In this document: positions 3,065 through 29,946 of the stretch, one piece after another
Position numbering within the stretch: the stretch's first letter is position 1
Layout: every line of letters starts with the position of its first letter
Assembly (NCBI GenBank): GCA_002781745.1
Contig: PFFW01000154.1
Coordinates: forward strand, 6,515 to 70,514
Direction of reading: 5' to 3'
DNA length: 64,000 nt
From: Rhodospirillales bacterium CG15_BIG_FIL_POST_REV_8_21_14_020_66_15
Lineage (GTDB): Bacteria > Pseudomonadota > Alphaproteobacteria > Rhodospirillales > Casp-alpha2
Program-made: the position numbers and the translations under genes
Notes under the pieces: model-generated
What the model was told of the DNA's origin: nothing
The model's input: the letters and a program-made list of their open reading frames with translations, nothing else
Databases searched by the model: none

Positions 3065-3958
3065 CTACGCCTTGCGGAAAAGGACGGCGATGCTGTCTGC
3101 CGATTGCAGCACGCAGGTTGTTCCTTGATCGGGCGGAAAATATTTCAGGACGGATTCGGCGAAATAACCCCGGTCCTTCTGTTCGATTTCAAATCCCTCG
3201 ACTTGTGAAACGATCGCGGGGCTGTCGATTACCAGAACGGTCTTCCGGGCGAGCCGCGCCAGTTCGCGGAGGATGGCCGCACGCGTGTCCTTCGTTTCCT
3301 GCGTCCCATCCCCGATGATGATCGACAGGACATGGGACATCACGACGTGGTCGAACGCGCCGTCGCCGAAGGCGACGAAGGTGGCAGCATCCGTCAGGTC
3401 CCCTTGGACCGCGCTCACCGGTTCGGAGCCGACCGCAAGATTGATGACGCTGACGGCTTCCGCGCTGAAATCGATGCCGTGGATCGGCGACCGGGGAAAG
3501 CGCTCCATCAGCACCTTTATGTTCTGGCCGCGGCCGCAACCGGCATCGAAGAACGTGTCGCCGTCGGCATATCCCAAAAGATCGGAATATCTCTCGATGA
3601 ACCCGTTTATGCGGCCGCCGGGCTTGCCGAACAGGGCGGCCTTTTCGGCGTCGCCGAGACCGGCATAAGAGAAGTATCCCCGCCCGTCCCTTCCGTAGTG
3701 GTGCCGGATGTAGCGCGAATACTTTCGTGACGCATAGGCGTCGAATTCACGCTGGTAAAGCCGACCCAGGAAGGCTGCGGCGCGGGCCAGGAAGGCGACG
3801 GCCCGGCCAAGCGGTCCCGGCTTCAGTTCGGCGCTGTGGAGATTGACCAGGAAGGTCTGATCCTTGACGAACCGCATGACGTGAAACACCGGCGGCACGA
3901 TGAGCCGGCCGACGATGAACGAGGGAAGCCTCGAATTCTTGATAAAGGCCAACGGCAT
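3065..3958 (-). CDS. Class I SAM-dependent methyltransferase
   Basis: FFDAGCGRGQN, HGIDFS, FDHVVMSHVL. Start chosen at ATG 3958; the track ORF extends to 4018. Confidence 0.75.
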   Translation of the reverse strand: MPLAFIKNSRLPSFIVGRLIVPPVFHVMRFVKDQTFLVNLHSAELKPGPLGRAVAFLARAAAFLGRLYQREFDAYASRKYSRYIRHHYGRDGRGYFSYAGLGDAEKAALFGKPGGRINGFIERYSDLLGYADGDTFFDAGCGRGQNIKVLMERFPRSPIHGIDFSAEAVSVINLAVGSEPVSAVQGDLTDAATFVAFGDGAFDHVVMSHVLSIIIGDGTQETKDTRAAILRELARLARKTVLVIDSPAIVSQVEGFEIEQKDRGYFAESVLKYFPPDQGTTCVLQSADSIAVLFRKA

Positions 3959-3977: not shown

Positions 3978-5351
3978 TCATGCGGATCGCGGGTTCGTGC
4001 CGACGGCGTCGGGAACACCCGTAGGCGCGGTCCGGCCGTCGGCCGGTGCCGGCTCGGCGGGTTTCAGGAGATCCTGCGCCTTCAGCGTCTCGGCTACCAG
4101 CGCGAGATCGAAGAACGGTTTTCCGGTCAAGTCGGCGATGGCGAGCAGGTCCATGGTTCCGTCGCTGTAGGCGAGCAGGTGGGAAACCTTCTCGGAGAAA
4201 TCGTCGATGAACTTGCCGTCCTTCAGGGGCGCGCGCAATCCTCTCGGGCTCAGCCAGGGCTCGCACAAGACCGTCGCCGCCAGCGTTTCGTTTTTCTCGA
4301 TGATCTGGATCGCCTGGAACGTCGCCGAAAAGCCGCCCCACAATCCGTCCGGCGAGATCACCGAGAGATCGTCGAGCGACGTATGGTATTCCGGATACGT
4401 GCCGTACTTGCTGCGCATGATGGAAACCACCGGCAGGTTGATCCCGGGCGCGCAATACTGGCGTTCATCGGAGCCTCGATCGAGATAGGAAAAGCTCGCG
4501 TACGGGACCCGGAGAATCCTGTCCAGGACATGTCTGGCGGCGCGTTCCGGAAGCGTGTTCCCCTGGCGCGCCGGCAGGAATGACCAGCCGCGGTCGTCGC
4601 CGACGCAGGTCATGACGAATCCGGCGATGACCGATTTCCGCAAGCTGTCCAGGTTTCTGCTGATATAGGCGACCGCACCGATGGTCTCGGGCACGTAGAC
4701 GATGCGATAGCTGTAGCGGCGCTCCGGCATGTCGAGGATCGCCCGCGCGAGATAGGCGGTCACCGCCATGCCCGAGGTCTCGTTGTTGGCCATCTGCGGG
4801 TGGCAGGTGTATGTGTGGATCAGGATCTCTTGCGTGCTCCGCCCCGGCACGAGGATTTCACCATAGGTCATTCCCCCGGGCTCGATCGAGGACCTGACGA
4901 CCACGCGGTACCGGGTGTCGGTCAGGCCCTGCTTCTGCCGCTCCGTGACGCAGAACGCCCAGCGCCGATTGAAATAGGAAGTGATGAACGGAATCGCATC
5001 GGGCAGGTCGGGAAGGCTGTAGAGGTGCGCCATCAGCTCTTCCCGGTCGAGCGTTGCGTCGACGGGAACGGAATAGCTCATCAGGTGGAGATTGTTGTCC
5101 GCGAAATCGATGACGCGGCGACCGGTCATATCGGCGATGTAGGCCTCCTCGACGTTCCACTCGTCAGGGATGGTCCAGTCGAAACATTGGCTTCCGCTTG
5201 GAATTTCCTTCGACTCAAGTTCGGGAATGACGTCGCGGAGGACGTCATGGGTCTGTCGAACGCCATGCCCCGTGATGCTGCGATGGATGGGAAACAGCTT
5301 TTCGGCAAGGGCGAATATGTCGTGCCCGTCGAACGGGAATTGCGCCGTCAT
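3978..5351 (-). CDS. DUF4910-family M28-like metallopeptidase/winged-helix protein
   Basis: KLFPIHRSITGHG, FDWTIPDEWN, HTYTCHPQMANNETSG, RGSDERQYC, YPEYHTSLDD. ATG 5351 overlaps the upstream stop (ATGA). Confidence 0.9.
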   Translation of the reverse strand: MTAQFPFDGHDIFALAEKLFPIHRSITGHGVRQTHDVLRDVIPELESKEIPSGSQCFDWTIPDEWNVEEAYIADMTGRRVIDFADNNLHLMSYSVPVDATLDREELMAHLYSLPDLPDAIPFITSYFNRRWAFCVTERQKQGLTDTRYRVVVRSSIEPGGMTYGEILVPGRSTQEILIHTYTCHPQMANNETSGMAVTAYLARAILDMPERRYSYRIVYVPETIGAVAYISRNLDSLRKSVIAGFVMTCVGDDRGWSFLPARQGNTLPERAARHVLDRILRVPYASFSYLDRGSDERQYCAPGINLPVVSIMRSKYGTYPEYHTSLDDLSVISPDGLWGGFSATFQAIQIIEKNETLAATVLCEPWLSPRGLRAPLKDGKFIDDFSEKVSHLLAYSDGTMDLLAIADLTGKPFFDLALVAETLKAQDLLKPAEPAPADGRTAPTGVPDAVGTNPRSA

Positions 5352-6253
5352 CGCGTGGATGCTCCCGTCTCGCTGGGCCGCAGATCGAAATCCGCAATGG
5401 CCTCGACGCTTGGTCCCGAAGCCGGCACGTCTTCGTTGATCCGCATCACGACCCGTCGCGTCGCGAACGCCCATGGGTCCTCGTCCAACATGGCATAGCC
5501 GACCGCGTCGACGTCCCTGGTATCCACGGCCGAGCTTCGCCTGCCGTTCCATTCCGTTTCGGCGAGAAATCCGCGTGACCGTAGCGCCTGTTCCAGGGGC
5601 TTCAGATCCGGGCCGATGTCGACGCTTCGGTAGCGCAGATAGGCCAGCCACACGCCCTCGATCCGCCGGCCGCCGCGATACATGGGAACCTCCAGTGTCT
5701 TGTGAAACCGGTGGGGAACGCCGAAGCACTGTTCGACGTGGTGGACGTATGTGGTGGGCTCGTTGAAGGGAATCCCAAGCGTCAAGATGCGGGCGTTCTG
5801 CGCGGACAGGCGATCCCAGGGACTGCTTCGGCCGAACGCGGCCGGCCCGCACCCTTCGATGATTTCTTCCGACCGGGCGCCCAGGGCGGCAAGGGAAAAG
5901 ATCGGGTGGAACGAACGCCGGGCCTTCGGCTGCAAGCGGACGAACTCGGAAAACGGCCCCACTTCCGACGGCGTCTTCTCAAGCTCGAAGAGCCCCCCGG
6001 GCCTGGTGGTGGAATAGGTGAAGGTGGGAACGACGAGGGTCCCCCCGGATCCCAATCGTTCCATCAGGACGTCGCACAGGAACGCGCAAAGCCGGATCCG
6101 CAGCGCGCGCATGGCATCACGCGAGACCGGCGTGTCGAACCGCGGCAACGGCACGCCGGTCATGTCCGAATGCACCATGACGATCGAACCCGCCACGATT
6201 CCCAAACGGTCCAACATGTCGTTCAGTGCGTGCCGTGCTTCGGCTTCACGCAT
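5348..6253 (-). CDS. AAC(3)-family (Antibiotic_NAT) N-acyltransferase
   Basis: VMVHSD, GGTLVVPTFTY, RSFHPIFSLAALG, AFGRSSPW, TTYVHHVEQ. ATG 6253 overlaps the end of the FkbH gene. Confidence 0.88.
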   Translation of the reverse strand: MREAEARHALNDMLDRLGIVAGSIVMVHSDMTGVPLPRFDTPVSRDAMRALRIRLCAFLCDVLMERLGSGGTLVVPTFTYSTTRPGGLFELEKTPSEVGPFSEFVRLQPKARRSFHPIFSLAALGARSEEIIEGCGPAAFGRSSPWDRLSAQNARILTLGIPFNEPTTYVHHVEQCFGVPHRFHKTLEVPMYRGGRRIEGVWLAYLRYRSVDIGPDLKPLEQALRSRGFLAETEWNGRRSSAVDTRDVDAVGYAMLDEDPWAFATRRVVMRINEDVPASGPSVEAIADFDLRPSETGASTR

Positions 6254-7880
6254 CTTCGAACACGATCCTGAAAAGGGTGAGATCGTCCGCATGGCAGGCG
6301 GCGATCTCATCCAGGTCACAGCGCAGGGCGCCGTCGTCCCTTGTGAAACCCGGGCCGTCGGTGAACATGGCGAACGGCGTGTTGCGTTCGGTCCGCCTGA
6401 ACGTCATGTCAAGGGGACTGGTCACGCGGTCCTTGATGGCGAGCAGGAAAGCGTACTCGATCCGCCGTTGGAAAACACGGCACGACATGACGAATGCCTG
6501 CGCGATTCCTCGCCCGTCGACGAGAAAAGAGAGGATCTCGCCATGATCTCCCGACTTATCGGTAAGTTTCGCAGTGAACAACCGGCCGCCATCGGAAAGC
6601 AGCCGGCTGACATTCTCTTCGCTCCATCGCTGACCGTTGAGGTTGAATTGATTGGTCTTGTTGATCAGTTGAATGGCCCGTGACCACGTTTCGGGCGTTC
6701 GCTCGAAAATCGTCAATTCCATATCCAGGCCGCGTAGGAAGTCCTCGACCGACTCCGCTTTTGCCGCCTGGTCGGCGACGGCCGCGCGGGCGCGATAAAG
6801 TTCGTTCCGACGACGGTCCTCGTCCGTCAGCGCGTCCCGGTGGAACAACAGGTTCAGTTCCGAGAACAAATTCGGCAGGGATGCCGAATCGCCGGGGAAA
6901 AGCACCGTCGCGACTTCGGGAAGAGCCGCGTTGACTTCGGCCAACTCGACCGGGTTGTCATCGACCATCACGATATTCGCGAGCCCCAAATTCAGGTTCC
7001 GGGCAATCGAGCGAACGGCGTCCGACTTGCTGCCGTAGCTCGATTCGAAGGCGATGAAATCATCTACGCCCAGCGGCATGCCGCCTTTTTCCAGCGGCGC
7101 GCGCGCGAGGTCCGGATCGTTTCTGCTGGCAACCGCCAGCATGATCCCGTCCCGCCGCAGGCGGCCGAGGTATGACTGGTAGATGAAATGCTTGTAGGAT
7201 TCCCCCTCGGCATCCGCGGAAACGTTTTCCGGACCGTCTTCTCCGACGGTGCCTCGCCACAGGCAGTTGTCGAGGTCCGTGACCAGCACCTTGCCGATGC
7301 CGCGACGGCCAGGAAGCATCCATTGCGCGGCGAGCGCCTCCGCCACGTCGGCAAGCCGATTTCCGGCGACGGGGGCACCCGAATGGAGATACGTCGTCAG
7401 GGAGAAAGCGTCCGGTCCCAGGATTCGCGCTCCCGCGCCGGCGGCGACAGACCGCAGGCCTTCGTCCAGCCTGGCCTGGTCGGCCGTGTTGCGAAAAACC
7501 GGAATGGCGGGCGTATCGATGTAGGCGACTGCGCCGAGACAGCGTTCGCTGATTCGCACGATCGTCTTCGCGCCCGCCGCGATCAGGTCTTCGGGCGGTT
7601 CGGGCGACTTCGGGCTCCCGCTGCGCCAGTCTGCCAACGGGCAAAGGTCCCAGGGCAGCACCAGGGCAAGCTCAGCCGTGCCGTCCGGCGCGGCCGCCAG
7701 GTGCTGTTGAAGGGTTCCGAAGGGCAAGCTGTCGATGCTGGCATTGATGCCGCGCTCGGCGAACGCGGCCCGGAGGTAGAGCACAAGATTGTCCAACATA
7801 CACGACGCGATCAGGCGCATTGGCTCGGCGGGTAACCCGGAAACGGCCTTGATCGCATTCCTGGCCTTTAGAAAACTCAC
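6246..7880 (-). CDS. fkbH: FkbH-like HAD-IIIC phosphatase / glyceryl-ACP synthase with C-terminal GNAT-like domain
   Basis: KVLVTDLDNCLWRG, VASRND, VDDNPVE, QLINKTNQFN, MSCRV. GTG 7880 overlaps the upstream stop (GTGA). Confidence 0.92.
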   Translation of the reverse strand: MSFLKARNAIKAVSGLPAEPMRLIASCMLDNLVLYLRAAFAERGINASIDSLPFGTLQQHLAAAPDGTAELALVLPWDLCPLADWRSGSPKSPEPPEDLIAAGAKTIVRISERCLGAVAYIDTPAIPVFRNTADQARLDEGLRSVAAGAGARILGPDAFSLTTYLHSGAPVAGNRLADVAEALAAQWMLPGRRGIGKVLVTDLDNCLWRGTVGEDGPENVSADAEGESYKHFIYQSYLGRLRRDGIMLAVASRNDPDLARAPLEKGGMPLGVDDFIAFESSYGSKSDAVRSIARNLNLGLANIVMVDDNPVELAEVNAALPEVATVLFPGDSASLPNLFSELNLLFHRDALTDEDRRRNELYRARAAVADQAAKAESVEDFLRGLDMELTIFERTPETWSRAIQLINKTNQFNLNGQRWSEENVSRLLSDGGRLFTAKLTDKSGDHGEILSFLVDGRGIAQAFVMSCRVFQRRIEYAFLLAIKDRVTSPLDMTFRRTERNTPFAMFTDGPGFTRDDGALRCDLDEIAACHADDLTLFRIVFEDA

Positions 7881-8974
7881 GGGGCGGCGCCCCCGGACAG
7901 GTCGAACGTGGCGCCGCTCATGAAGCGGGACGGGTTGTCGAGCACCCAATTTACCGAGTCGGCGGCCTCGTCCAGCGACATCAGGCGGCCCCACGGGGAT
8001 CGGTCCATGTTGGCCACCCTTGCCGCCGCCGATTGCTGCGCATTCATCCCGCCATCGAGAGCATCGAACCTGACGGATAGACAGCGCATGTCCTGGGCGC
8101 TCAATTCCATCGCAAGTACCTCAGTCAGGGTCGGGACGACCGCCTTGCCCATGGAATAGAGCGGCGCGCGCCAGAAGTGGCGTCCGCGTGACGCCGCGGT
8201 CGATCCGATGAGAACCAGCGTCGCGCCGGGTCCGCCCCGTTCAACCATGATCGACGCAAGCGAGATGCCCTGGGAAAGCGGCTCGACGAGTCCGGTTTCC
8301 AGCGCCGCCGCCGGATCCGGTAGGGCCAGCAGGCCGCAGTTGTCCTGCGCGGGCCAGCCGCAATGGACCACCGCGCGAACGGACGCGTCGCCGAGGCGCT
8401 CGAGCAGCCGTGCCCGGCCGGATGCGGTGTGGACCTCGTCGGCCCGCGAGACCGGAACGGCGACCGCGCCCAGTCGATTGCTCAGCGCCGTTCCCAAGCC
8501 CCCGGATGCGCCCGATATCAGGACGACCTGCGACGTCGCGTCCTCCGTGTTCGCGGGTCGCGTCTCCGAACCGGACGCGGGTGCGGCCCGCCCTGCGCCG
8601 TGGTAACCGAAGGCGTAGCGGGCCTCCACGTATCGCCGCCCGTCGGCGGCGCCGGTGATGACGACCGAGACCTGCCCGCCGTCGCCGGACTGGCGGTCGA
8701 CGCGCCCCTCGACCCGAAGCGTCAGCGGCGGCACCATGGGAGAAACGAACTTCAAGCGCATGTCGTGAAGGAGACATGCCTCGCCCGGAAGATGCATGCC
8801 CGCCATCCGCGATACCAGACCGGCGGCGTAGGCGCCGTGCAGTACGCGCCGTCGATAGGGCGTGCCGGCGGCATACGCGGCATTTGTGTGCAGCGGATTA
8901 TGATCGCCGGACAGGTCGGCGAACGCGTCCAGCGCGTCCTCGTCGACCGAAACCTCGAAGGCGTACTCCTTCAT
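7877..8974 (-). CDS. MaoC-like dehydratase fused to SDR (FabG-like) reductase
   Basis: N-terminal FADLSGDHNPLH...VLHG hot-dog motif; C-terminal ISGASGGLG and YSMGK. ATG 8974 overlaps the ACP stop. Confidence 0.88.
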   Translation of the reverse strand: MKEYAFEVSVDEDALDAFADLSGDHNPLHTNAAYAAGTPYRRRVLHGAYAAGLVSRMAGMHLPGEACLLHDMRLKFVSPMVPPLTLRVEGRVDRQSGDGGQVSVVITGAADGRRYVEARYAFGYHGAGRAAPASGSETRPANTEDATSQVVLISGASGGLGTALSNRLGAVAVPVSRADEVHTASGRARLLERLGDASVRAVVHCGWPAQDNCGLLALPDPAAALETGLVEPLSQGISLASIMVERGGPGATLVLIGSTAASRGRHFWRAPLYSMGKAVVPTLTEVLAMELSAQDMRCLSVRFDALDGGMNAQQSAAARVANMDRSPWGRLMSLDEAADSVNWVLDNPSRFMSGATFDLSGGAAP

Positions 8975-9210
8975 GGTCTGAGTTCGTCCACCAGAAGGGC
9001 GACGGATTGGTAGGACGTGAAGCGGTCGCGCTGCTCGCCGTTCAATTCCGTTCCGAGCTCGGCCTCGATGGCGGCAATGAAGGTTGCCGTGGCCAGGGAA
9101 TCCCATTTCTCGCAATTGATCTGGCGAAGGCTTCCCACATCGGTCTCTTCCGGCAGGTCGAGGACGACAAGAAAGATTTCCTTCAGCTTCGCTTGGGTTT
9201 CAGCGTCCAA
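8971..9210 (-). CDS. Acyl carrier protein
   Basis: Acidic protein of about 79 aa with a WDSL phosphopantetheine motif. TTG 9210 is preceded by AGGAGG (the track start is 9237). Confidence 0.88.
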   Translation of the reverse strand: MDAETQAKLKEIFLVVLDLPEETDVGSLRQINCEKWDSLATATFIAAIEAELGTELNGEQRDRFTSYQSVALLVDELRP

Positions 9211-9249
9211 GATAGCATCCTCCTGCAGTCGAGACACCAGAAGGCACGT

Positions 9250-9834
9250 CTACCACTTCGTCGATTGGACCTGAAGGTCCGGATGAGAAACGAGACAATG
9301 CCAGACCACGGCCTGGAAGGCTTCCGTGTGAGGTGTCACCAGGTTCGGATCGACCGTCGGCACGATGACCACCTCGTCTCCGATCTTCGCCGTGTGGCCG
9401 CCGTCGCGTCCGACGACGCCGAGGATCTTCGCGCCGACCTCCTTGGCCAGTTCCAGCGCGTGCAGCAGGTTGACGCTGACGTTCCTTTCAAGGTTTCCCC
9501 CGCCGACGGAAAACACGAAGACCGCATCGTCGGCGGACAGGCGGCTGATCTTCAGCCAGCCCGCAAACACCGTTTCCCAGCCCTCGTCGTTGGTGCGGGC
9601 CGTCAACTCGGACACGTTGTCCGTCGGGGCGTAGGTTTCGATGCCGCACAGCTTGCGGAAATCATTGACCGCGTGGGACGCGTTCGCGGCGCTTCCGCCG
9701 ACGCCGAGAACGAACAGTCGTCCGCCGCGTTCGCGCAGCGCGCTCAGTTCCCTGACCATGGCCTCGATCGCGTCGCCGTCGATTTGGGCGGCGATCTCCT
9801 GGACTTGTTTCATGTAGGTTGTCGCGTGTCCCAT
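9250..9834 (-). CDS. gmhA: SIS-domain sugar-phosphate isomerase, GmhA-like
   Basis: LFVLGVGGSAANASHAVNDF, SELTARTND, FSVGGG, HTEAFQ. ATG 9834 with AAGGAG RBS. Only the C-terminal part of track ORF 9250..11118 is real. Confidence 0.8.
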   Translation of the reverse strand: MGHATTYMKQVQEIAAQIDGDAIEAMVRELSALRERGGRLFVLGVGGSAANASHAVNDFRKLCGIETYAPTDNVSELTARTNDEGWETVFAGWLKISRLSADDAVFVFSVGGGNLERNVSVNLLHALELAKEVGAKILGVVGRDGGHTAKIGDEVVIVPTVDPNLVTPHTEAFQAVVWHCLVSHPDLQVQSTKW

Positions 9835-9854
9835 TTGGGCTCCTTGCGTTCGGA

Positions 9855-11609
9855 TCAAAGTTGCTGCATCTCGACCAGCCGCGCAAAGGCGCCGTCGCGG
9901 CGCATCAGCTGGTCGAAGGTTCCCTGTTCGACAATCCGGCCACGCTCCATGACGGCGATGTTGTCGGCGCGCTTGATCGTCGAGAGACGGTGCGCGATCA
10001 CCAGGAACGTCGTCGTTCCCACGATGGTTTCGATCGCCGATTGGATCAGCTGCTCGCTTTTCGTGTCCAACGCGCTCGTCGCTTCGTCCAGGATAAGCAA
10101 CGTCGGCTTGCGCACCAGGGCCCGGGCCAGGGAGATTCGTTGCGCCTGCCCGCCGGAAAGACGGAACCCCTGATCTCCGACGATCGTATCGTATCCGTTC
10201 TCCAGGTCCGCGACGAATTCCTCGGCGTTGGCCAGCCGGCAGGCCTCGCGGATTTCCTCGTCGCTGGCACCTGGATTGGCGAAGGCGATGTTGTCGCGGA
10301 CGCTGGCGTGGAAAAGCGAGGTCCGTTGCGGTACGTAGCCCAGCCTTCCGCGATAGGCGGAGATGTCGACTTCGCGCATCGGCACGCCGTCGATGCCGAC
10401 CGTTCCCGCGCTCGGATGCAGCAATCCCATGACAATGTCCGCCAAGGTCGACTTGCCGGCGCCCGACGCCCCGACCAGCGCGGTCATCTTTCCGGACGGA
10501 ATCTCCAGATTGATTGCGTCGAGGACGGGAACCGCGGAATTGTAGGAAAAGGAGACGTTGTCGAGGACGATTGCATCCGTAAGCCTGTCGAAGGGCTTCG
10601 AGCCAAAATGAACGGTCGACTCTTCCGCCTGACGTCGCACCTTCATCACCTGTTCGAAGCTCGGATAAAGGCTGATCAGTTGCGATCGGTTCTGATTGAT
10701 GTTGGCGACGGTCCCCGCGAGGCGGTTGAACGCATAGAGGACGACGGCGATTTCGGCCAACGGCACGCCCAACCGCTGTCCCGACAGGAAGGTGGCGAAC
10801 ACCACGACGATCCCGATCGGCGCATGAAGCGAATAGATCGTCGATTGAATGAATTGAAGGCCGATCGACGCCGACCGCAGCGCGGCGAAGGCGTGGCGCA
10901 GGCGCTCGATCGCCGGCCGGATGTTCCCGAACCCGATGATCAGGCGGGCGTTCTGGAGGGATTCCTGCAATGCCGTCGAAAATTCGTTGTTGGCCTTCGT
11001 GTTCACCTGTCCCAGGCCGTATACACGTGCGCGGAATGTTCTCAGGGGGACAAGGAGTACGGCCGCGACGGCCATGGCGATGGCGGTGACCTGCCACGAA
11101 ACGAAAAAGGGAATCCACAACAGAACGATGACCTGTGCGGCGGGCGCGATCATGCGCGTCAACGCTGTGAATGCGTCGGCCACGCGCGCGACCTCGATCG
11201 TCAGGGTGTTGATGAAATCGCCCTGCCGTTGTCCGGCAAGAAAGGTCACGCTTGACGACAGGACGCGTTCCGCGGTGCCGACGACCATGTCCGCGCGAAC
11301 GACGAATTGCGCACGCAACAGGAAATAATTGATGGCGATCAGCAGGACGCTGTTGAGGATCGTCAGGACGACGAACACGGAAAGATAGACGACGATACCG
11401 CCGTCCAGGCCGAGGAACGCCATCGCCGACATTATATACGGCGACAGCGTGTCGCCGCCGCCTTCCTGCGTCAGCAGGCTGACGATCGGCGCGATCGAGG
11501 CGAGGGTCGCCGCATCGACCATCATCAGCAGCAGCGCCAAGACGACGTTCCCGGCGAACAGGGTCGGGTAGCGCCTGAAGAGCTCGTAACCGAAGCGCGA
11601 GATGCTCAT
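9855..11609 (-). CDS. ABC transporter permease+ATPase half-transporter (MsbA/PglK-like putative glycan flippase)
   Basis: N-terminal TM helices, Walker A GASGAGKST, LSGGQAQR, LLILDEAT, IAHRL. Confidence 0.92.
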   Translation of the reverse strand: MSISRFGYELFRRYPTLFAGNVVLALLLMMVDAATLASIAPIVSLLTQEGGGDTLSPYIMSAMAFLGLDGGIVVYLSVFVVLTILNSVLLIAINYFLLRAQFVVRADMVVGTAERVLSSSVTFLAGQRQGDFINTLTIEVARVADAFTALTRMIAPAAQVIVLLWIPFFVSWQVTAIAMAVAAVLLVPLRTFRARVYGLGQVNTKANNEFSTALQESLQNARLIIGFGNIRPAIERLRHAFAALRSASIGLQFIQSTIYSLHAPIGIVVVFATFLSGQRLGVPLAEIAVVLYAFNRLAGTVANINQNRSQLISLYPSFEQVMKVRRQAEESTVHFGSKPFDRLTDAIVLDNVSFSYNSAVPVLDAINLEIPSGKMTALVGASGAGKSTLADIVMGLLHPSAGTVGIDGVPMREVDISAYRGRLGYVPQRTSLFHASVRDNIAFANPGASDEEIREACRLANAEEFVADLENGYDTIVGDQGFRLSGGQAQRISLARALVRKPTLLILDEATSALDTKSEQLIQSAIETIVGTTTFLVIAHRLSTIKRADNIAVMERGRIVEQGTFDQLMRRDGAFARLVEMQQL

Positions 11610-12781
11610 GTCAATTGGGTCGCGATTTCCTTGGCGACGTACTCGACCTCCTCGTCCGTCATCGACGGGAAAAAGGGGATCGATAGTGTTCGCGCGTAAT
11701 GCGCCTCGGCCACGGGAAAGGCGCCTCCAGCAGGGGACAGTCGTGCCGCGTGGAAGGGTTGCCGGTGGACCGGGATGTAGTGGACCTGGGTGCCGATCCC
11801 GGCGTCGCGAAGCCCCGCCATAACGTCGCTGCGTCGCCGTCCCAGACGATCGAAGTCGACGTCGATCGTGTACAGGTGGAGACCGGATCTCGCGCGTTGA
11901 TCGGGCCGGGACTGCGGAAGGGCCACCTTGTCCAGTCCGGCAAAGCAGCCGTCGTAATAGGCGGCGATCTCCCGCCGCCGTGCGAGGAAGCTGTCCAGCC
12001 GGTTCAACTGCGCCACGCCGAGAGCGGCCTGCAGATCGGTCATCCGGTAGTTGAACCCGAGCGCCTGCTGCTCGTATCGCCAGGGTCCGTCCTCGTCGGG
12101 CAGGGATCCGGCGAAGCGGCCGGGATCCCGTTCGATACCGTGGTTCCGCAGCAGGCGGAGCCGCCGCGCGAGTTCGTCGTCGTTGGTCGTCACCGCGCCG
12201 CCCTCGCCCGTGGTGATCGGCTTGACGGGATGGAACGAGAACGCCGCCATGTCCGAAAAGGCGCAGCCGCCCACGGCCTCTCCGTTTTCGTGGGTGCCTC
12301 CAAGGGCGTGACAGGCGTCCTCGATGACGACCAGGCCTTCGGCGGCCCGTCGGAGCGCCTCGGACGATTGGGCCAGACCGCCATAGTGTACAGGCAGGAC
12401 GGCCCGCGCGTCGCCGTGATGCCGCTTGAAGTCGCCGACCGTTTCCGGCGACAGGCAGCGGCTGTCGGAATTGACGTCCAAGATCGTCACCTCGGCGCCG
12501 CAGTAGGTCGGCGCATTGGCGGTCGCAACGAAGGTCAGGTCCGCGACCCCGGCGCGGTCGCCGGGCCCGAGACCGGCGGCCAGGCAGGCCAGGTGAAGGG
12601 CGGCGGTGCCGTTGCAGACGGCGACGGCATGGCGGGCGCCGACGCGTTCGGCGAGCGCGCGTTCGAACCGTTCGACCGCGGGGCCCTGTGTCAGAAAGTC
12701 GCTTTTCAGAGCATCGACGACGGCGGCGATATCCGCCTCGCCGATGGTCTGGCGGCCGTATCCGAGGAACCGCGCGGTCAA
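11606..12781 (-). CDS. pseC: UDP-4-amino-4,6-dideoxy-N-acetyl-L-altrosamine transaminase (PLP, DegT family)
   Basis: FLGYGRQTI...SDFLTQGP, IEDACHALG, FSFHPVKPITTGEGG, LGFNYRMTD, QVHYIPVH. TTG 12781 with GGGAGA RBS, directly after pseB. Confidence 0.88.
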   Translation of the reverse strand: MTARFLGYGRQTIGEADIAAVVDALKSDFLTQGPAVERFERALAERVGARHAVAVCNGTAALHLACLAAGLGPGDRAGVADLTFVATANAPTYCGAEVTILDVNSDSRCLSPETVGDFKRHHGDARAVLPVHYGGLAQSSEALRRAAEGLVVIEDACHALGGTHENGEAVGGCAFSDMAAFSFHPVKPITTGEGGAVTTNDDELARRLRLLRNHGIERDPGRFAGSLPDEDGPWRYEQQALGFNYRMTDLQAALGVAQLNRLDSFLARRREIAAYYDGCFAGLDKVALPQSRPDQRARSGLHLYTIDVDFDRLGRRRSDVMAGLRDAGIGTQVHYIPVHRQPFHAARLSPAGGAFPVAEAHYARTLSIPFFPSMTDEEVEYVAKEIATQLT

Positions 12782-12783
12782 GG

Positions 12784-13776
12784 TCAGTCTCCCAGTCCGA
12801 TCATATCGCGCAAATCCTCGGCGCCGACCCATTGGGGGTTGCCGTCGCTTGTATAGGAGAAACCCTCCGGCACGGGATTGCCGGCGCGTCCGTTGTACAT
12901 CCTGGGCTCTTCCGGGTTCCACATGTGGAAATCGGGTCGGATCACGTAGAAGTTCTCGAATTCAAGGGTCTGACGGGCTTCGTCGACCGGGATCATGATT
13001 TCATGCAGCTTTTCACCGGGGCGGATTCCCGTCACCTTCTGCGCGCAGTCGGGAGCGACGGCGGAAGCCAGGTCGACGATCCGCATGGATGGAATCTTGG
13101 GGACGAACACCTCGCCGCCGCGCATCATTCCGTAGCTGTCGATGACAAACCGGACGCCTTGTTCGACGGTCAGCCAAAAACGTGTCATGCGCGTATCCGT
13201 GATGTGCAGGGTGCCCGTTTCCTTCTGCCTTTGAAACACGGGGATGACGCTGCCGCGTGAACCGATGACGTTGCCGTAACGGACCACGGAAAAACGGCAC
13301 CCCTGGTTCCCGGAGATGTTGTTCGCGGCGATGAACAGCTTGTCCGAGCACAGCTTGCTGGCGCCGTACAGGTTGATGGGATTGACGGCTTTGTCCGTCG
13401 ACAGGGCGATGACCTTTTTGACACCCGCGTTGATGCTGGCGTTGATGACGTTTTCCGCGCCCATGACGTTGGTCATGATGCATTCGATCGGATTGTATTC
13501 GGAAGCGACCACCTGTTTCATGGCGGCGGCGTGGATCACCGTATCGATGCCGTTAAGGGCGCGTTCCAGCCGCCCCGCATCGCGCACGTCACCGATGAAA
13601 TACCGCAGGTTCGGCGCGCTCAACTCGTTCGCCATTTCGAACTGTTTCAGTTCGTCCCGGGAATAGACCACCAGGCGCTTGACGTTGTGTTCGGCCAACA
13701 CGTGTTTGACGAACGCCTTGCCGAACGAACCGGTGCCGCCGGTGATTAGAAGCGATCTGCCTTCGAGTGATGTCAA
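12784..13776 (-). CDS. pseB: UDP-GlcNAc 4,6-dehydratase (inverting)
   Basis: LITGGTGSFG, YSRDELKQFEM, HAAAMKQV, LSTDKAVNPINLYGASK, VRYGNV, GIRPGEKLHE. Confidence 0.95.
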   Translation of the reverse strand: MTSLEGRSLLITGGTGSFGKAFVKHVLAEHNVKRLVVYSRDELKQFEMANELSAPNLRYFIGDVRDAGRLERALNGIDTVIHAAAMKQVVASEYNPIECIMTNVMGAENVINASINAGVKKVIALSTDKAVNPINLYGASKLCSDKLFIAANNISGNQGCRFSVVRYGNVIGSRGSVIPVFQRQKETGTLHITDTRMTRFWLTVEQGVRFVIDSYGMMRGGEVFVPKIPSMRIVDLASAVAPDCAQKVTGIRPGEKLHEIMIPVDEARQTLEFENFYVIRPDFHMWNPEEPRMYNGRAGNPVPEGFSYTSDGNPQWVGAEDLRDMIGLGD

Positions 13777-13853: not shown

Positions 13854-15143
13854 TCAGATCGATGTGTTCAGGGGGGACCGGGCTTCGAAAACGTCGGCGA
13901 CCTTCTCCCAGATCGGGCCGTCGTGCGCGCCGGGGGCGATGGCGAATTTTTCGACGAAGGCCCGATAAATCCGCTCGTCTACCTCGGGGACGGGAATCGC
14001 GGTGTCGGGGTTCCGCATGAAGGCATCCAGATTGATCCTCGGCTGGTCAAGCCAGCTGGAACGGGACTCGATGTCGGCTTTGATGATCGTTGCCTCGAGG
14101 GCGTCGTTGGTGAGAAACAGGATCGGCTTCCGGTACAGCGCGGATATTACCGTCGCGGTGCTTTGGTGTTGCAGGGTCAGTGCGCTGTTCTTGATCAGCG
14201 CCGGGGTGGTTCCGATAAATACCGGACGGCGACCGAACAGGGTTTCAACCTCGTCGGGGTTGTAATTCGCCTTGGGGTGCAGGGAAATCACGACCGGCAG
14301 ATCGAACTGCCTTTCGACCTTTTCGAAAAACGTGCGGAGGCTGGCGAAATACGCGGCCTCGTCAAGGCGGACCGGAATGTTTTCGATCTGAAAATCCGGA
14401 TGATGGCAAAGCGCGGAATCGATAAAGACCGCGTAAGGTTCTGCCGGTCTCGGGTCGGGGGCGACGGTCGCACGCTTGGCCCAGAACACCTCGAAGCCCT
14501 CGACACTGACGACCTCGCTGCGGTTCACCTTGAAGGAATGATCCGCGAACGGTTGCCGCCAGGTCCCAGCCCGGACCCAGAGAAGGGGAGCCGGCAGGCG
14601 GAAGAACGCGGGCCCGATCTCGCCGATCAGCTTCAGCCGGACCTTGATCCTGTACAATAGGTGACGCAAGGCGGAGACGGCACAGATGACACCGCGCCAG
14701 GGGCTGCGGCGGAACACGATCCTGCAGTTCCTCCCCATAGGCAGCGCGGCCAGCGACGCGCGCACGAACTTCAGGTCGCGTTGGGCGAACGCCAAGTACA
14801 GCCAACTCGACTCGCGGGAAAGCGCGGGAAGCGCCAGGATCAGGTCGGTTGGAGACAGGGTGTCCAGGAATTCGGCGAGCTCCTGACGGGTGCGCGGGGT
14901 ATAGGCGTCCGGCAACGCCTGGAAGGCACCACGTGACAGTGCGTTCAGGTTCATGCCTTCCAAGGCTTCTCCGCATTGGACGACCGACACGTCGTATCCC
15001 CTGGCTGCGAAGACATCGCATCCGAAACGCACCCAGTCGCGGGAGGTGAACAGGTGCCGGCAGAAGATGACATAGCGGCGCCGCGGCCGGGCAGGGGGCC
15101 GGGAAGAATCCGCAGGTTTGGGGGCGGACACGAACGAATTCAT
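13854..15143 (-). CDS. Uncharacterised protein, candidate GT-B nonulosonate/polysaccharide transferase
   Basis: C-terminal FIDS...VVISLHPK...STATVISALYRKPILFL resembles HP-motif sialyltransferase-like or capsule proteins. Start re-picked at ATG 15143. Confidence 0.45.
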   Translation of the reverse strand: MNSFVSAPKPADSSRPPARPRRRYVIFCRHLFTSRDWVRFGCDVFAARGYDVSVVQCGEALEGMNLNALSRGAFQALPDAYTPRTRQELAEFLDTLSPTDLILALPALSRESSWLYLAFAQRDLKFVRASLAALPMGRNCRIVFRRSPWRGVICAVSALRHLLYRIKVRLKLIGEIGPAFFRLPAPLLWVRAGTWRQPFADHSFKVNRSEVVSVEGFEVFWAKRATVAPDPRPAEPYAVFIDSALCHHPDFQIENIPVRLDEAAYFASLRTFFEKVERQFDLPVVISLHPKANYNPDEVETLFGRRPVFIGTTPALIKNSALTLQHQSTATVISALYRKPILFLTNDALEATIIKADIESRSSWLDQPRINLDAFMRNPDTAIPVPEVDERIYRAFVEKFAIAPGAHDGPIWEKVADVFEARSPLNTSI

Positions 15144-15200
15144 TTCTCGATGCAGGTCAAGGAAAGGCGGGCAGCCGGCGCTCGGCACATCGGGCGCCGC

Positions 15201-23601: not shown

Positions 23602-24669
23602 TCACGAATGGGTCTCCTGAGCACGTTTGTTGGCACGGCTTAAATCCTCGAGCCTTCCGACGTCGAGCCAATATTCGTGGATGGGAAAGGCCGCGCAGGT
23701 CCGGCCTTCCTCGATCCATTGGCCGAACAGCGTCGGCATGTCCAGGTGTGTGTTCCTGGGAATCCGTTTCAGGGTCTCCGGCTCCAGCACATAGATCCCG
23801 GCGTTGACCAGGAACCGCTGCGCCGGCTTCTCATCTATGGACACGATTGCGCTGTCGTTCACGTTGACCACGCCGAACGGAACCTGAAGGTCGTATTCAC
23901 GGACAGCCATCGTGGCCAACGCCTCGCGCTCGCGATGGAAGTCGAGCATCTTACTGAAATCGATTTCGGTCATAAGGTCGGCGTTCATCACGACGATGGG
24001 CTCCTTGGGCGCGATATCCAGCAGGCTGAGGGCGCCGGCCGTGCCCAGGGGTTCGCTTTCATCGATGTATCGGATCTCCGCGTTCCACTCCCGGCCGTCC
24101 TTGAATCGGGCCTTGATCTGGTTACCCAGGTAATTGACCGAAACTTGGAACCGAACGAAACCTTGCGCCACGAATTTTTCGATGATGCTTTCCAGCAGCG
24201 GCTTTCCGCCGACCTCGACCAACGGCTTGGGCACGGCCTCGGTCAGCGGGCGAAGGCGCATGCCCTGGCCCCCGGCCATCAGAATGACCCAGTTGTCGCG
24301 GACCGCGCCCGGCTTGATGAGGTCGTCGATGATGACCAGGTCGATCACCCGGCTTCCGGCGTCGACCACGGGCACCTGGTGAATTCCCCGGCGTGCCATT
24401 GTCGCTTTCAGTTCGGCCAACTGGTAGTGCGGCGGGACGGAAAGCGGACTGGCGTTCATGACTTCCGTCACGGGCCGATCCATTGCGACCCCTTTCAGGA
24501 TCGCGCGGCGGATGTCTCCGTCGGTGATGGATCCGAGGAGCCGGTCGTTCTCGTCCACCACGAGAGCGATCTGCAACACGCTGTTGTCGATGCTTCTGAT
24601 CGCCTCAAGCATCGGCATGGTCGGTGGCACAAGCGTCTTTCGCCAATCCGTCACGGTGATACGATCCAA
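23602..24669 (-). CDS. CBS-domain nucleotidyltransferase (PtmE/LegX-type sugar-1-phosphate guanylyltransferase)
   Basis: N-terminal CBS pair (GSITDGDIRRAIL); ILMAGGQGMRLRPLT, PKPLV, EPLGTAGAL, YWLDVG. Lies within the leg gene block. Confidence 0.88.
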   Translation of the reverse strand: MDRITVTDWRKTLVPPTMPMLEAIRSIDNSVLQIALVVDENDRLLGSITDGDIRRAILKGVAMDRPVTEVMNASPLSVPPHYQLAELKATMARRGIHQVPVVDAGSRVIDLVIIDDLIKPGAVRDNWVILMAGGQGMRLRPLTEAVPKPLVEVGGKPLLESIIEKFVAQGFVRFQVSVNYLGNQIKARFKDGREWNAEIRYIDESEPLGTAGALSLLDIAPKEPIVVMNADLMTEIDFSKMLDFHREREALATMAVREYDLQVPFGVVNVNDSAIVSIDEKPAQRFLVNAGIYVLEPETLKRIPRNTHLDMPTLFGQWIEEGRTCAAFPIHEYWLDVGRLEDLSRANKRAQETHS

Positions 24670-24702
24670 ATTTCGTCAGTCGATTGCACGTCGGGCATGG
24701 GT

Positions 24703-26952
24703 CTACGAAATCACCTCGTCGGCGTCGAAATCTCGCGACGCATGCCGGCCAAGCCAATCGAAATAGTCGTATGCCGGAACGCCCGTTTCCGGTCGCTTTA
24801 CGGTCAGGTTGTCGACCGTGAACATTTCGTCCTTGGCGATCGGCCGCGCTGCCACCAGGCTTTTGCGGGCGACCGCCTTGTTGGCGATCTCATTCTCCAG
24901 CGGCCGCTTTACGCCGTCGCCGAGGGCGAGTTCGACGTCGCGGATGGCGGCGACCATGGCGGCGAATGCGCCCGGTTCCATCGACGCCATGTGGTCCGGT
25001 CCGGCCATCGTGCGGTCCAGCGTGATGTGCTTTTCGATAACGCGGGCGCCCCGGGCGACGGCTGCAATCGCGGCGGCCGAACCCTCGCAGTGATCGGAAA
25101 ACCCGACGGGCAGGCCGAAGCGGGCGGCGATCGTGTCCATCGCCCTCAGGTTGACGTCGGCCAAGGGCGCCGGATATTCGGTCGTGCATTGCAGGACCGT
25201 TACCCTGTCCTTGAGCGCGGCGCGCCCCGCCGGACTGAGGAACGCGCGGCGGAACGCATCGCGCCCCGGGGTGCCGCCGGACCTTGAAAACCCGAAGGCG
25301 AGAACACCCAGCGCGGCCTCGATTTCGTCCATGGTCGCCATCCCGGTCGACAGGATTACCTTCAGGCCGCGCTCGGCGATGCCAAGGAGGAGCGGCGCAT
25401 TGGTGAGATCGCCGGACCCGACTTTGATCGTGCGAAGGCCGAGCTCGTCGGCGAGGAAGGCGAGGGATGCGGCGTCGAACGGGGTCGACAGGAAGGCGAC
25501 GCCCCGGTCGCGGCAATGGTCCAGAAGTTCGCGCTGGCCGGCTTCCGTCAGTTCAAGCGTCTTCAACATGTCGCGCTGGTTCTGGGCCGCGCCGGTCTGT
25601 CGCGCCTGATACGCCGCTTTCGGTGCCGCTTCCGTCGTCAATGCATCGGCCTTGAAGGATTGGAACTTGACCGCGTCGGCGCCGGCCGCGGCGGCGGCGT
25701 CGATCAAGGCCTTGGCCGTCTCTACCGAGCCGTTGTGGTTGACGCCGGCCTCGGCGATCACCGTGACGGGTCCGGGTGCCGGCGGCAGGGCGGGAGCGAC
25801 GTCGCGGAACCTCTTGTCGCGCAGCGAGGCGAGGTCCACGGCGCTCAGGATGTCCGCCATTCTGCCTGCGGCATTCCCGTCACCCAGGAAGAAGGGCGTC
25901 TTCCGTCCCCCGTCCGCTTCGCGTCCCATTGCACGCTCCAACGCTTCGGCGACGGCGGCCGGCATCCCGTCGCAGTCGAAGACGGTTGCCGCGCGCAGGC
26001 GCCCCGCCTGGCGCGGCCCCACGTTCACGGTCGGCGTGCCGAGGATCGGCGCCTCGATGACGCCGCTGGAGGAGTTTCCGACGACGGCGTCGGCGATCTT
26101 CATCAAGCTCAGATACCGCAGGCTGCCGAGCGAGGCGTGCAGCGAGGCGCGCGCCGGATTGCGGGCGACGAATTCCCGGATGACCCGGTTCACCGATTCA
26201 TGCCCCGGATCGGCATTGACCCCGGTGAAGACGACGGAGGCTTCGGGAAACCGCTCCAGCGCCGCCGTCACGGCCTGGACTCCGGCAAGGCCGTCGTCGC
26301 CGGCAAGGGTCACCGGATGGTAGGTCGCGAGGAACAGGGGCGGTTCCAGTCTCCGTCCAAGGTCGGCTTCGAGTTCGGCCCGGTCCAGGAAGTCGAGGGT
26401 CCGCAGGTTGTCCGCGGCGAGGGCGCCCACTGCATATGTGTTGTCCGGATCCTCCCCCATCTGGACGACCCGCTGCCGATAGGGCTCGGCCGCGGTGAAA
26501 TGCAGGTGCGCCAGTTTGGTCACGGCGTGCCGGATTGCGTCGTCGAAGGCGCCGGCGGTCAGTTCACCGCCGTGGATATGGGCGATCGGAATTCCGCTCA
26601 ACATCGCGGCGGATGCCGCCGCCAGAGTTTCGTAACGGTCGCCGAGCAGCACCAGGACATCCGGTTTCAGATCCGAAAACGCAGCGGTGAGCCTGGCCAG
26701 CGCCGCCGCCATGATGTCGGCCGCGGCCTGCGCGTCGTCACCGGGGCGAAGGATGTCGACCCGGGCGGCGATTTCGAATCCATCGGCCTCGATGACGTCG
26801 ACGGTCCGCCCGAAGGCCTCGGACAGGTGAGTGCCCGTCACGACCAGGCAGAGGGACAGATCCTTGCGCGCGTCGATCGCGCGGAGCAGCGGCACCAGCA
26901 GGCCGTACTCCGCCCGCGTCGCCGTGATCACGCAAATCCGCCGAGGCGCCAA
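24703..26952 (-). CDS. neuC-neuB: Fusion of hydrolysing UDP/GDP-sugar 2-epimerase (NeuC/LegG) and nonulosonate synthase (NeuB/LegI) with SAF domain
   Basis: N-half TATRAEYG, VLLGDRYE, AHIHGGE, GNSSSG; Pro/Ala linker; C-half IAEAGVNHNG, KFQSF, STPFD, STGMA, GFSDH, IEKHITLD. Single uninterrupted frame. Confidence 0.92.
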   Translation of the reverse strand: MAPRRICVITATRAEYGLLVPLLRAIDARKDLSLCLVVTGTHLSEAFGRTVDVIEADGFEIAARVDILRPGDDAQAAADIMAAALARLTAAFSDLKPDVLVLLGDRYETLAAASAAMLSGIPIAHIHGGELTAGAFDDAIRHAVTKLAHLHFTAAEPYRQRVVQMGEDPDNTYAVGALAADNLRTLDFLDRAELEADLGRRLEPPLFLATYHPVTLAGDDGLAGVQAVTAALERFPEASVVFTGVNADPGHESVNRVIREFVARNPARASLHASLGSLRYLSLMKIADAVVGNSSSGVIEAPILGTPTVNVGPRQAGRLRAATVFDCDGMPAAVAEALERAMGREADGGRKTPFFLGDGNAAGRMADILSAVDLASLRDKRFRDVAPALPPAPGPVTVIAEAGVNHNGSVETAKALIDAAAAAGADAVKFQSFKADALTTEAAPKAAYQARQTGAAQNQRDMLKTLELTEAGQRELLDHCRDRGVAFLSTPFDAASLAFLADELGLRTIKVGSGDLTNAPLLLGIAERGLKVILSTGMATMDEIEAALGVLAFGFSRSGGTPGRDAFRRAFLSPAGRAALKDRVTVLQCTTEYPAPLADVNLRAMDTIAARFGLPVGFSDHCEGSAAAIAAVARGARVIEKHITLDRTMAGPDHMASMEPGAFAAMVAAIRDVELALGDGVKRPLENEIANKAVARKSLVAARPIAKDEMFTVDNLTVKRPETGVPAYDYFDWLGRHASRDFDADEVIS

Positions 26953-26955
26953 GTT

Positions 26956-29886: not shown

Positions 29887-29934
29887 CGTGATGGTAAGCC
29901 GAACGTGGGGTCCGCAGGCGCCATGTCGCCCAGG

Positions 29935-29946
29935 CACGCTACCGCA
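29935..29946 (-). promoter_or_regulatory. ops-like element (RfaH loading / pause site)
   Basis: Minus (non-template) strand reads TGCGGTAGCGTG, 11/12 identical to the enterobacterial ops GGCGGTAGCGTG. It lies between the rfaH-like gene and the first biosynthetic gene. Confidence 0.75.

Follow-up and report, generated by a model that had tools for sequence, protein, structure and literature searches.

A carrier-protein cassette at the end of an alphaproteobacterial glycan operon probably supplies a glycerate-derived acyl group for sugar N-acylation

Pseudaminic acid and legionaminic acid are found on flagella, capsules, S-layers and O-antigens, where antigenicity, phage recognition and charge depend on the N-acyl groups that they carry. 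N-glyceroyl-type groups are still unsolved enzymatically, their genetic basis was called 'a major challenge' in a 2017 paper, and their sole firm link to a gene is Cj1295 of Campylobacter jejuni. This protein belongs to PIRSF015244, 'polysaccharide biosynthesis proteins with an aminopeptidase-like domain', is needed if the flagellin of C. jejuni 11168 is to carry 5-N-(2,3-di-O-methylglyceroyl)-pseudaminic acid, and was proposed to strip the N5 acetyl, opening the site for a new acyl group (Hitchen et al. 2010, PMC3068675). The same locus carries an FkbH-domain gene, cj1302 (PMC7099621). In Clostridium acetobutylicum, the structure of CA_C2195 (3k9t) was solved by Das et al. (2014), who named DUF4910, described an aminosugar N-acetyltransferase, acpA and an 'N-acetyltransferase + HAD phosphatase' as its neighbors, and suggested transacylation or deacylation of a sugar amide (PMC4000134). 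The glyceroyl group of Tannerella is found on N7 and the glycerate-derived group of Campylobacter on N5. Descriptions of this gene association in Campylobacter and Clostridium date from 2010 and 2014, so it is already known. Here we describe a five-gene block in a 64,000-nucleotide stretch of contig PFFW01000154.1 from Rhodospirillales bacterium CG15_BIG_FIL_POST_REV_8_21_14_020_66_15 (the window, meaning this whole stretch), encoding an acyl carrier protein (ACP), a MaoC-SDR fusion, an FkbH protein, an AAC(3)-like protein and a DUF4910 protein. The block is probably an acyl-donor factory coupled to transfer enzymes that N-acylate a 2,4-diamino-trideoxyhexose or nonulosonic acid of the operon's surface glycan. 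New in print are the MaoC-SDR (putatively lactyl-type) variant, here in an alphaproteobacterial polysaccharide operon, and its fusions.

Genes were defined from a six-frame list of open reading frames (ORFs) and from the sequence itself, over region 3978-9237 of the minus strand. In the order of transcription the block and the gene after it are:

8971-9210, minus strand: dedicated ACP, 79 amino acids (aa) from a TTG start at 9210, with the motif WDSLA
7877-8974, minus strand: MaoC-SDR fusion, 365 aa, with a MaoC hot-dog dehydratase at residues 1-135 and an SDR reductase at residues 150-365
6246-7880, minus strand: predicted FkbH-family glyceryl loader, 544 aa from a GTG start, with a HAD-IIIC phosphatase and Cys-transferase core at residues 196-514
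5348-6253, minus strand: AAC(3)-fold protein, candidate N-acyltransferase, 301 aa, matching PF02522
3978-5351, minus strand: DUF4910/DUF2172/HTH_47 protein of the Cj1295 / CA_C2195 family, 457 aa, with an M28-like fold and a putative mono-zinc site
3065-3958, minus strand: class I S-adenosylmethionine (SAM) methyltransferase, 19 nucleotides downstream of the DUF4910 gene

Start and stop codons overlap at all four junctions, which read ATGA, GTGA, ATGCGTGA and ATGA from the ACP to DUF4910, and translational coupling spans all five genes. The TTG start of the ACP has GGAGG 8 nucleotides upstream and yields the same length, 79 aa, as the orthologue in Thalassospiraceae bacterium LMO-SO8 (locus L003); an alternative in-frame GTG at 9237 would give 88 aa. 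The start codons are backed by end-to-end alignment with the L003 orthologues. An earlier note on this DNA had described five overlapping genes with their key motifs intact, and this description, with the coordinates given there, held when the junctions were re-read and the proteins were checked against profiles and motifs; all five genes are on the minus strand. The methyltransferase is a possible O-methylase of the acyl hydroxyl, and its membership in the module is uncertain.

The FkbH protein scores 225.1 bits against TIGR01686 (cut-off 146.65), covering model positions 3-321 of 323. Its residues D202/D204, S252, K285, D307/D308 and C467 (in SCRV) are at least 90% conserved among 13 family members, and we take the conserved Cys, C467 here, to be the acyl carrier residue. 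These matches agree with the assignment to the glyceryl-loading family made in the earlier note and show full-length membership with the HAD motifs and the Cys intact. The N-terminal ~190 aa of the protein have no Pfam match in searches of Pfam and NCBIfam. This domain is kept in every FkbH of the type described here, and it sits between AAC3 and the FkbH core in fusion proteins from other genomes. In the MaoC-SDR protein, profile searches recover MaoC_dehydratas (PF01575, 54.1 bits) and adh_short_C2 (PF13561, 38.0 bits). The MaoC half contains the hydratase-2 motif with its catalytic Asp and His (FADLSGDHNPLH at residues 18-29, with GDHNPLH at residue 23), and the SDR half has an intact Gly-rich loop (GASGGLG at 155), Ser (within IGSTAAS) and Y273-x3-K277. 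The fusion family comprises at least 194 clusters.

The AAC(3)-like protein matches Antibiotic_NAT (PF02522) at 110.4 bits, and its conserved H171/E174 fall at the His/Glu motif when it is aligned with AAC(3)-VIa. Against the NCBIfam AAC_3 equivalog it reaches 76.7 bits, below the cut-off of 270, and by these scores it has the AAC(3) fold yet is no resistance-type AAC(3). The DUF4910 protein has a three-domain architecture (DUF4910 311.9, DUF2172 125 and HTH_47 40.2 bits) and aligns with PDB 3k9t over residues 9-430 (E = 2.9e-101). Of the His-Asp-His zinc site of 3k9t, the two His are kept as H184 and H323, and Asp195 of 3k9t aligns with N190, beside the invariant E191. The ACP is acidic and ~80 aa long, with the phosphopantetheine site at Ser47 in WDSLA at the start of helix 2, and the motif WDSxA is common to all ACPs of this kind. 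The carrier-protein profile PF00550 is reached by a fused homologue (L005, 26.9 bits) and, weakly, by the ACP orthologue in locus L091.

The block is found in identical order in the complete genome of LMO-SO8 (L003), as pseB-pseC-ABC-SIS-ACP-MaoC/SDR-FkbH-AAC3-DUF4910-methyltransferase, with 56-74% amino acid identity to the window proteins (66% for the ACP). The nearest protein relatives are from Thalassospiraceae and Rhodospirillaceae. Elsewhere the same domains are fused. A Rhodospirillaceae locus (L005) joins AAC3 to FkbH in a protein of 835 aa and MaoC, SDR/ketoreductase (KR) and PP-binding domains in another of 504 aa, and a Burkholderiales locus (L047) has the same fusion layout. In a Campylobacterales locus (L106), a MaoC+AAC3 fusion of 394 aa (8054-9235, minus strand) lies beside ACP, FkbH and DUF4910, with no SDR within 19 kb. 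Order kept at this level of identity in L003, together with pairwise fusion of the same domains in unrelated genomes, shows that the grouping goes beyond chance; chance adjacency was ruled out by the synteny and by four kinds of domain fusion.

We sampled the contexts of seven further MaoC-SDR homologues (L086-L092), or nine with the window and L003. Each of the seven, and thus all nine, has an ACP of ~80 aa with the same motif just upstream and an FkbH of ~545 aa adjacent, and the seven sampled FkbH proteins all carry an N-terminal domain like that of the window protein. This linkage indicates that ACP-MaoC/SDR-FkbH is a conserved acyl-donor trio. After the trio, AAC3 follows in four of the seven contexts, mostly then a methyltransferase, and DUF4910 is present in three. 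AAC3 follows the trio without DUF4910 in L088, and neither is present in L086, L087 and L091; the proteins following FkbH in L086 and L087 have no Pfam or NCBIfam match. The class I methyltransferases after AAC3 in L088, L089, L090 and L092 are non-orthologous to the one at 3065-3958 of the window. The comparison therefore does not support the downstream methyltransferase as a conserved sixth member, since it has an orthologue in L003 only and different class I enzymes take its place elsewhere. In three contexts (L090:5490-11637, L092:5221-11541 and L089:1240-7565), ACP-MaoC/SDR-FkbH-AAC3-methyltransferase and DUF4910 form an isolated cassette, the surrounding 7 kb being free of sugar genes. 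All three have phage-type integrases or transposase remnants next to the six genes, suggesting that the cassette may move as a unit.

Viewed from DUF4910, the association was counted in 82 independent loci taken from one-per-species genomes. An AAC3-like gene is found no more than 500 bp away in 41 of them and no more than 6 kb away in 49, usually upstream of DUF4910 and encoded on the same strand. Eleven of the 82 have FkbH, and all 11 also contain an AAC3-like gene. Many DUF4910 loci are pseudaminic or legionaminic acid clusters. The loci are layered: DUF4910 is the commonest element and often has AAC3 as partner, the FkbH/ACP donor unit comes on top of these, and MaoC-SDR is in turn added to FkbH. 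Polar-flagellum islands of Aeromonas read Maf-FkbH-ACP-AAC3-DUF4910 and have no MaoC-SDR. A Helicobacteraceae pseudaminic acid cluster (L063:4598-13242) reads carbamoyltransferase-DUF4910-pseB-pseC-pseF-(GT1-like)-formyltransferase-pseI, and DUF4910 has a formyltransferase as partner there and no AAC(3)-like gene. The idea that DUF4910 stands in for a missing PseG was set aside, since a PseG-like gene and DUF4910 coexist in Campylobacter (from the literature) and in L063. Taken together, the synteny with L003, the linkage of the trio in nine of nine contexts and the domain fusions uphold the earlier note's view of the five genes as one module, and the co-occurrence survey that it proposed found the trio intact with all seven sampled MaoC-SDR homologues and an AAC3-like gene in every FkbH-containing DUF4910 locus.

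In the route that we propose, FkbH would take 1,3-bisphosphoglycerate, its HAD domain would remove the phosphate, and the glyceryl unit would pass via Cys467 to the phosphopantetheine of the ACP. The function of the family is established, and the profile and motif comparisons above show membership of the window protein. The MaoC domain would then dehydrate glyceryl-ACP to enol-pyruvoyl- or pyruvoyl-ACP and the fused SDR would reduce this to lactyl-ACP; ketoreduction of the pyruvoyl form and enoyl reduction of the enol would give one and the same product. We propose this second step because the ACP-MaoC/SDR-FkbH linkage is obligate, because MaoC, KR and ACP are fused elsewhere, and because the arrangement resembles the FkbH-DH-KR-ACP loaders (DH, dehydratase) of polyketide synthases (PKSs). 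The same three points favor the earlier note's suggestion that FkbH with a dehydratase and a reductase yields a lactyl-type unit. Since there is no ketosynthase or FabH on the window contig, the acyl group on the ACP should stay C3, and chain extension to a longer acyl group was ruled out on this ground. A 3-hydroxybutyryl route through MaoC/FabG-like chemistry was ruled out as well, as there is no acetoacetyl source and FkbH is the invariable partner. Our confidence is strong that the block provides an ACP-borne, glycerate-derived C3 acyl group for sugar N-acylation and moderate that the product is lactyl, where we argue by analogy; the acceptor nitrogen and the role of DUF4910 we only infer.

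The five-gene block is the end of a long co-oriented operon, which looks like a polysaccharide operon and offers candidate acceptors:

9250-9885, minus strand: SIS-domain isomerase, between pseC and the ACP gene
9855-11609, minus strand: ABC exporter, between pseC and the ACP gene
11606-12787, minus strand: pseC (TIGR03588, 446 bits, above the equivalog cut-off)
12784-13776, minus strand: pseB (TIGR03589, 519.7 bits, above the equivalog cut-off)
23602-29937, minus strand: GDP-type legionaminic acid set (CBS-nucleotidyltransferase, NeuC+NeuB fusion, LegC, LegB and CMP-transferase; no LegH)

The order of SIS isomerase and ABC exporter also occurs in L003. Farther upstream lies a tailoring stretch with methyltransferases, a carbamoyltransferase, radical SAM enzymes and a NodB-type deacetylase. 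A 444-aa ORF (13854-15188, minus strand), which separates the cassette of this deacetylase from pseB, has no Pfam or NCBIfam match, and L003 carries a 407-aa gene with no recorded Pfam match at the same position. The hydrolysing 2-epimerase NeuC and the synthase NeuB are fused at 24703-26952 of the window into a protein of 749 aa, both halves of which score above their equivalog cut-offs. No Maf gene is found on the window contig.

The genome assembly (3.85 Mb in 198 contigs, 98% complete) has a single PseB, and no match to PseH or PseG was found anywhere in it. There is no NeuD/PglD/LegH-type acetyltransferase on the window contig. Three NeuB-family synthases are present in the genome, with contigs C166 (L112:9601-10662) and C114 (L113:3002-4054) among their sites. 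PseI (471 bits) lies on another contig than the window, C166, where this bona fide PseI adjoins a TIGR04372 glycosyltransferase and an FkbM methyltransferase. With PseI on C166 and PseG and PseH undetectable, the pseudaminic acid pathway is non-canonical and split between contigs. The lack of PseH in the genome and of a LegH/NeuD-type gene on the contig leaves the AAC(3)-like enzyme as the sole N-acyltransferase candidate for the PseC and LegC products. This enzyme would transfer the acyl group from the ACP to a sugar amine, and its fusion to FkbH and to MaoC elsewhere argues that it acts on this particular acyl-ACP. The likeliest acceptor would be the 4-amino group of the PseC or LegC product, later N7 of the nonulosonic acid, since it is PseH and LegH that are missing; pseB and pseC are the likely source of the 4-amino acceptor sugar.

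DUF4910 would be the weakest step of the route. Its likeliest role would be that of a zinc amidase, stripping an N-acetyl group so that the nitrogen can be re-acylated; failing that, it would edit or assist the transfer. In the three cassettes without an aminotransferase or sugar genes within 7 kb (L089, L090 and L092), the free amine would have to come from deacetylating a finished sugar. By analogy, the deacylase role that the earlier note gave to DUF4910 finds agreement in the published hypothesis for Cj1295. The neighboring methyltransferase may finally O-methylate the remaining hydroxyl. The predicted product is pseudaminic or legionaminic acid with an N-lactyl (2-hydroxypropanoyl, possibly O-methylated) group.

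A number of observations weigh against this scheme. We know of no report of an N-lactyl nonulosonic acid. In the searchable literature up to 2026 we found no enzymology for any protein of the cassette, and searches on Cj1296-Cj1303, on FkbH together with pseudaminic acid and on lactyl together with FkbH returned no biochemical study; the paper on the 403-Da flagellin glycan of Aeromonas does not mention the cassette genes, and the SugarBase preprint does not state the family of its 'deacetylase'. The window ACP scores 17.8 bits against PP-binding (PF00550), under the cut-off of 20.8. No DUF4910 gene lies within 7-8 kb of the trio in L086, L087, L088 and L091, and a stand-alone MaoC occurs beside AAC3-DUF4910 without FkbH in L006, L013 and L039. 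The active site of DUF4910 is unusual: the family is without the canonical M28 catalytic Asp/Glu (Das et al., PMC4000134), and the alignment places Asn at one of the three zinc-ligand positions of the window protein. Variants of C. jejuni NCTC 11168 that still make the glycerate-derived modification have the AAC(3)-like gene cj1296/7 out of frame (PMC3068675), and the gene is described as consistently OFF, suggesting that transfer may not depend on the AAC(3)-fold enzyme; in C. jejuni, either another enzyme, be it FabH2 or DUF4910, does the transferring, or a low level of slippage suffices. Of the earlier note's proposal that the AAC(3)-like enzyme acylates a 4-amino sugar, the part that stands is that no other N-acyltransferase candidate is present, while the acceptor could equally be a de-N-acetylated N5 or N2, N5 being the position in Campylobacter.

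DUF4910 could itself be the transferase that moves the acyl group from the ACP to the sugar, through transacylation or amide exchange, while the AAC(3)-like protein serves as an acetyl-coenzyme A (CoA) N-acetyltransferase in place of PseH or LegH. Such an exchange of roles would fit the requirement for Cj1295 in making the di-O-methylglyceroyl group although cj1296/7 is phase-OFF, the transacylation suggested by Das et al. (PMC4000134), the absence of PseH from the genome and of LegH from the contig, and ~38 loci that have the AAC3-DUF4910 pair but no FkbH, where the donor is presumably an ordinary CoA thioester. We nevertheless consider it unlikely, given that fusions join AAC3 to FkbH (L005 and L047) and to MaoC (L106), that AAC3 accompanies FkbH in 11 of 11 DUF4910 loci and follows the trio where DUF4910 is lacking (L088), and that the trio also occurs with neither of the two (L086, L087 and L091). 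A different possibility concerns the acyl group, which might stay glyceroyl and perhaps be methylated later as in Campylobacter, while MaoC-SDR inverts C2 by oxidation and reduction or handles another thioester. No glycerate-derived N-acyl groups other than N-glyceroyl and di-O-methylglyceroyl are documented on nonulosonic acids, the operon contains several methyltransferases, and a stand-alone MaoC without FkbH is seen in three loci. However, the FkbH cassettes of Campylobacter, Aeromonas and Clostridium that are linked to glyceroyl-type groups are without MaoC-SDR, so MaoC-SDR should change the product. Epimerization needs no dehydratase, both the MaoC and the SDR active sites are intact, and MaoC-SDR lies beside FkbH and ACP in nine of nine contexts and is fused to the ACP in two more loci. 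An unaltered glyceroyl product thus seems improbable to us.

We regard as very improbable a third reading, that the C3 acyl-ACP feeds O-acylation or acylates another molecule, such as a different glycan sugar or a lipid, and not the nitrogen of a nonulosonic acid precursor. It draws on loci outside the window: the trio lies among Acyl_transf_3 and MBOAT membrane O-acyltransferases in L091, unannotated proteins and not AAC3 come after it in L086 and L087, and the cassettes of L089, L090 and L092 are away from sugar genes. In the window, by contrast, the partner has the AAC(3) fold, all characterized members of which acylate amines, and it shares one operon with pseB/pseC and the legionaminic acid genes while the canonical N-acetyltransferases are missing; the sole genetic evidence for the family, that from Cj1295, also concerns an N-acyl group. 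The L091 locus itself (L091:1-15104), which contains a FemAB-like gene beside the membrane acyltransferases, suggests an O-acylation variant that uses the same donor.

A more far-reaching version can be entertained, though only tentatively and with more doubt than belief. In it, the cassette would be a self-contained, horizontally mobile unit for swapping N-acyl groups: the free-standing trio would make lactyl-ACP outside a polyketide synthase, the AAC(3) enzyme would have switched from acetyl-CoA to acyl-ACP, DUF4910 would be a new class of mono-zinc sugar de-N-acetylase, and the product, as yet undescribed, would be pseudaminic or legionaminic acid N-acylated with lactyl (or O-methyl-lactyl). 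Gene content would then predict the acyl group, with FkbH only giving glyceroyl, the addition of MaoC giving pyruvoyl and the addition of MaoC-SDR giving lactyl; by this logic, L106, with its MaoC+AAC3 fusion and no SDR, should make an N-pyruvoyl product. The rule is testable, and if it holds, the decorations of nonulosonic acids would be predictable from genomes and the family would be a source of a sugar N-acyltransferase that depends on acyl-ACP and perhaps also of a new de-N-acetylase for sugars. The window locus, its L003 orthologue and the fusion proteins provide a clean set of genes for study of the pathway, non-phase-variable and from non-pathogens.

Unusual acyl groups are put on amino sugars by other routes as well. 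In Vibrio cholerae O1, the rfbK-O genes carry out ACP-dependent N-acylation of perosamine with 3-deoxy-L-glycero-tetronate. As in the window, a dedicated ACP and acyl-processing enzymes lie in the glycan (O-antigen) cluster and provide an unusual hydroxyacyl group for an amino sugar; unlike in the window, the acyl group is C4, the loader is of the acyl-CoA-ligase type, the transferase is another one, and FkbH, the AAC(3) fold and DUF4910 are all absent. Neisseria PglB2 places N-glyceroyl on a 2,4-diamino-2,4,6-trideoxyhexose (glyceramido-acetamido-trideoxyhexose), but it is an ATP-grasp ligase that uses the free acid and no carrier protein, and is mechanistically unrelated. FrbF, an enzyme with the AAC(3) fold, has a CMP-linked substrate on which it acetylates an amine, so nucleotide-linked acceptors are within reach of the fold. 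The window protein has the fold and the His/Glu motif in common with AAC(3) acetyltransferases and FrbF (3sma); its predicted donor is acyl-ACP, unlike the acetyl-CoA of AAC(3) resistance enzymes.

The closest gene sets are those of Campylobacter and Clostridium, and as in their cassettes, DUF4910, AAC(3)-like, ACP and FkbH genes of the window are clustered with nonulosonic acid genes. The C. jejuni NCTC 11168 segment Cj1293-Cj1304 (pseB, pseC, Cj1295, Cj1296/7, acpP2, methyltransferase, cj1302 FkbH, fabH2 and acpP3) likewise has DUF4910, AAC(3)-like, ACP and FkbH genes near pseB/pseC. It differs from the window in lacking MaoC-SDR, with FabH2 and a further ACP instead, in its product, which is 2,3-di-O-methylglyceroyl on N5, in the phase variation of its genes and in its role in flagellin (Maf) glycosylation. 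The Campylobacter-type order is also seen in another Campylobacterales locus (L107), as pseB-pseC-DUF4910-AAC3-ACP-methyltransferase-FkbH-FabH-ACP-DUF2920-DUF2920, with identities to the window of 41% for DUF4910, 31% for AAC3 and 28% for the FkbH core. In C. acetobutylicum CA_C2195-CA_C2199, the same gene association is present and CA_C2195 is a close homologue of the window DUF4910, but a Maf gene is embedded in the neighborhood and no MaoC-SDR is reported. The HAD protein near CA_C2195 was not recognized as FkbH by Das et al., and glyceryl-ACP was not proposed (PMC4000134).

For the donor side, the nearest parallels come from polyketide biosynthesis. Stand-alone FkbH enzymes (FkbH, OzmB and Tmn16/RkD), which make glyceryl-ACP for methoxymalonyl-ACP or tetronates, are like the window protein in TIGR01686 membership, HAD motifs and the conserved Cys. 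Their partners are FkbI/J/K/G or FabH-like tetronate enzymes, however, and the window FkbH has its extra ~190-aa N-terminal domain. The FkbH-DH-KR-ACP loaders of the trans-AT polyketide synthases for FR901464 and bryostatin (BryA) are closer in logic, converting the glyceryl-ACP made by FkbH to pyruvoyl with a dehydratase and to lactyl with a ketoreductase, a logic also reported by He (2014, Angew Chem). In bryostatin BryA, the lactyl loading reportedly runs in just this order, from FkbH to dehydratase to ketoreductase. For the FR901464 synthase, the FkbH loading module yields lactate-ACP according to Zhang 2011 as cited in PMC7901079. The L005 protein with MaoC, KR and ACP resembles a mini-module of such a loader. 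Unlike the PKS loaders, the window proteins are discrete, the MaoC domain is a hot-dog and not a PKS-type DH, the contig has no ketosynthase, and the predicted destination is a sugar amine. By this analogy the window cassette would work like an FkbH-DH-KR-ACP loader without being a member of that group, the resemblance being one of function only.

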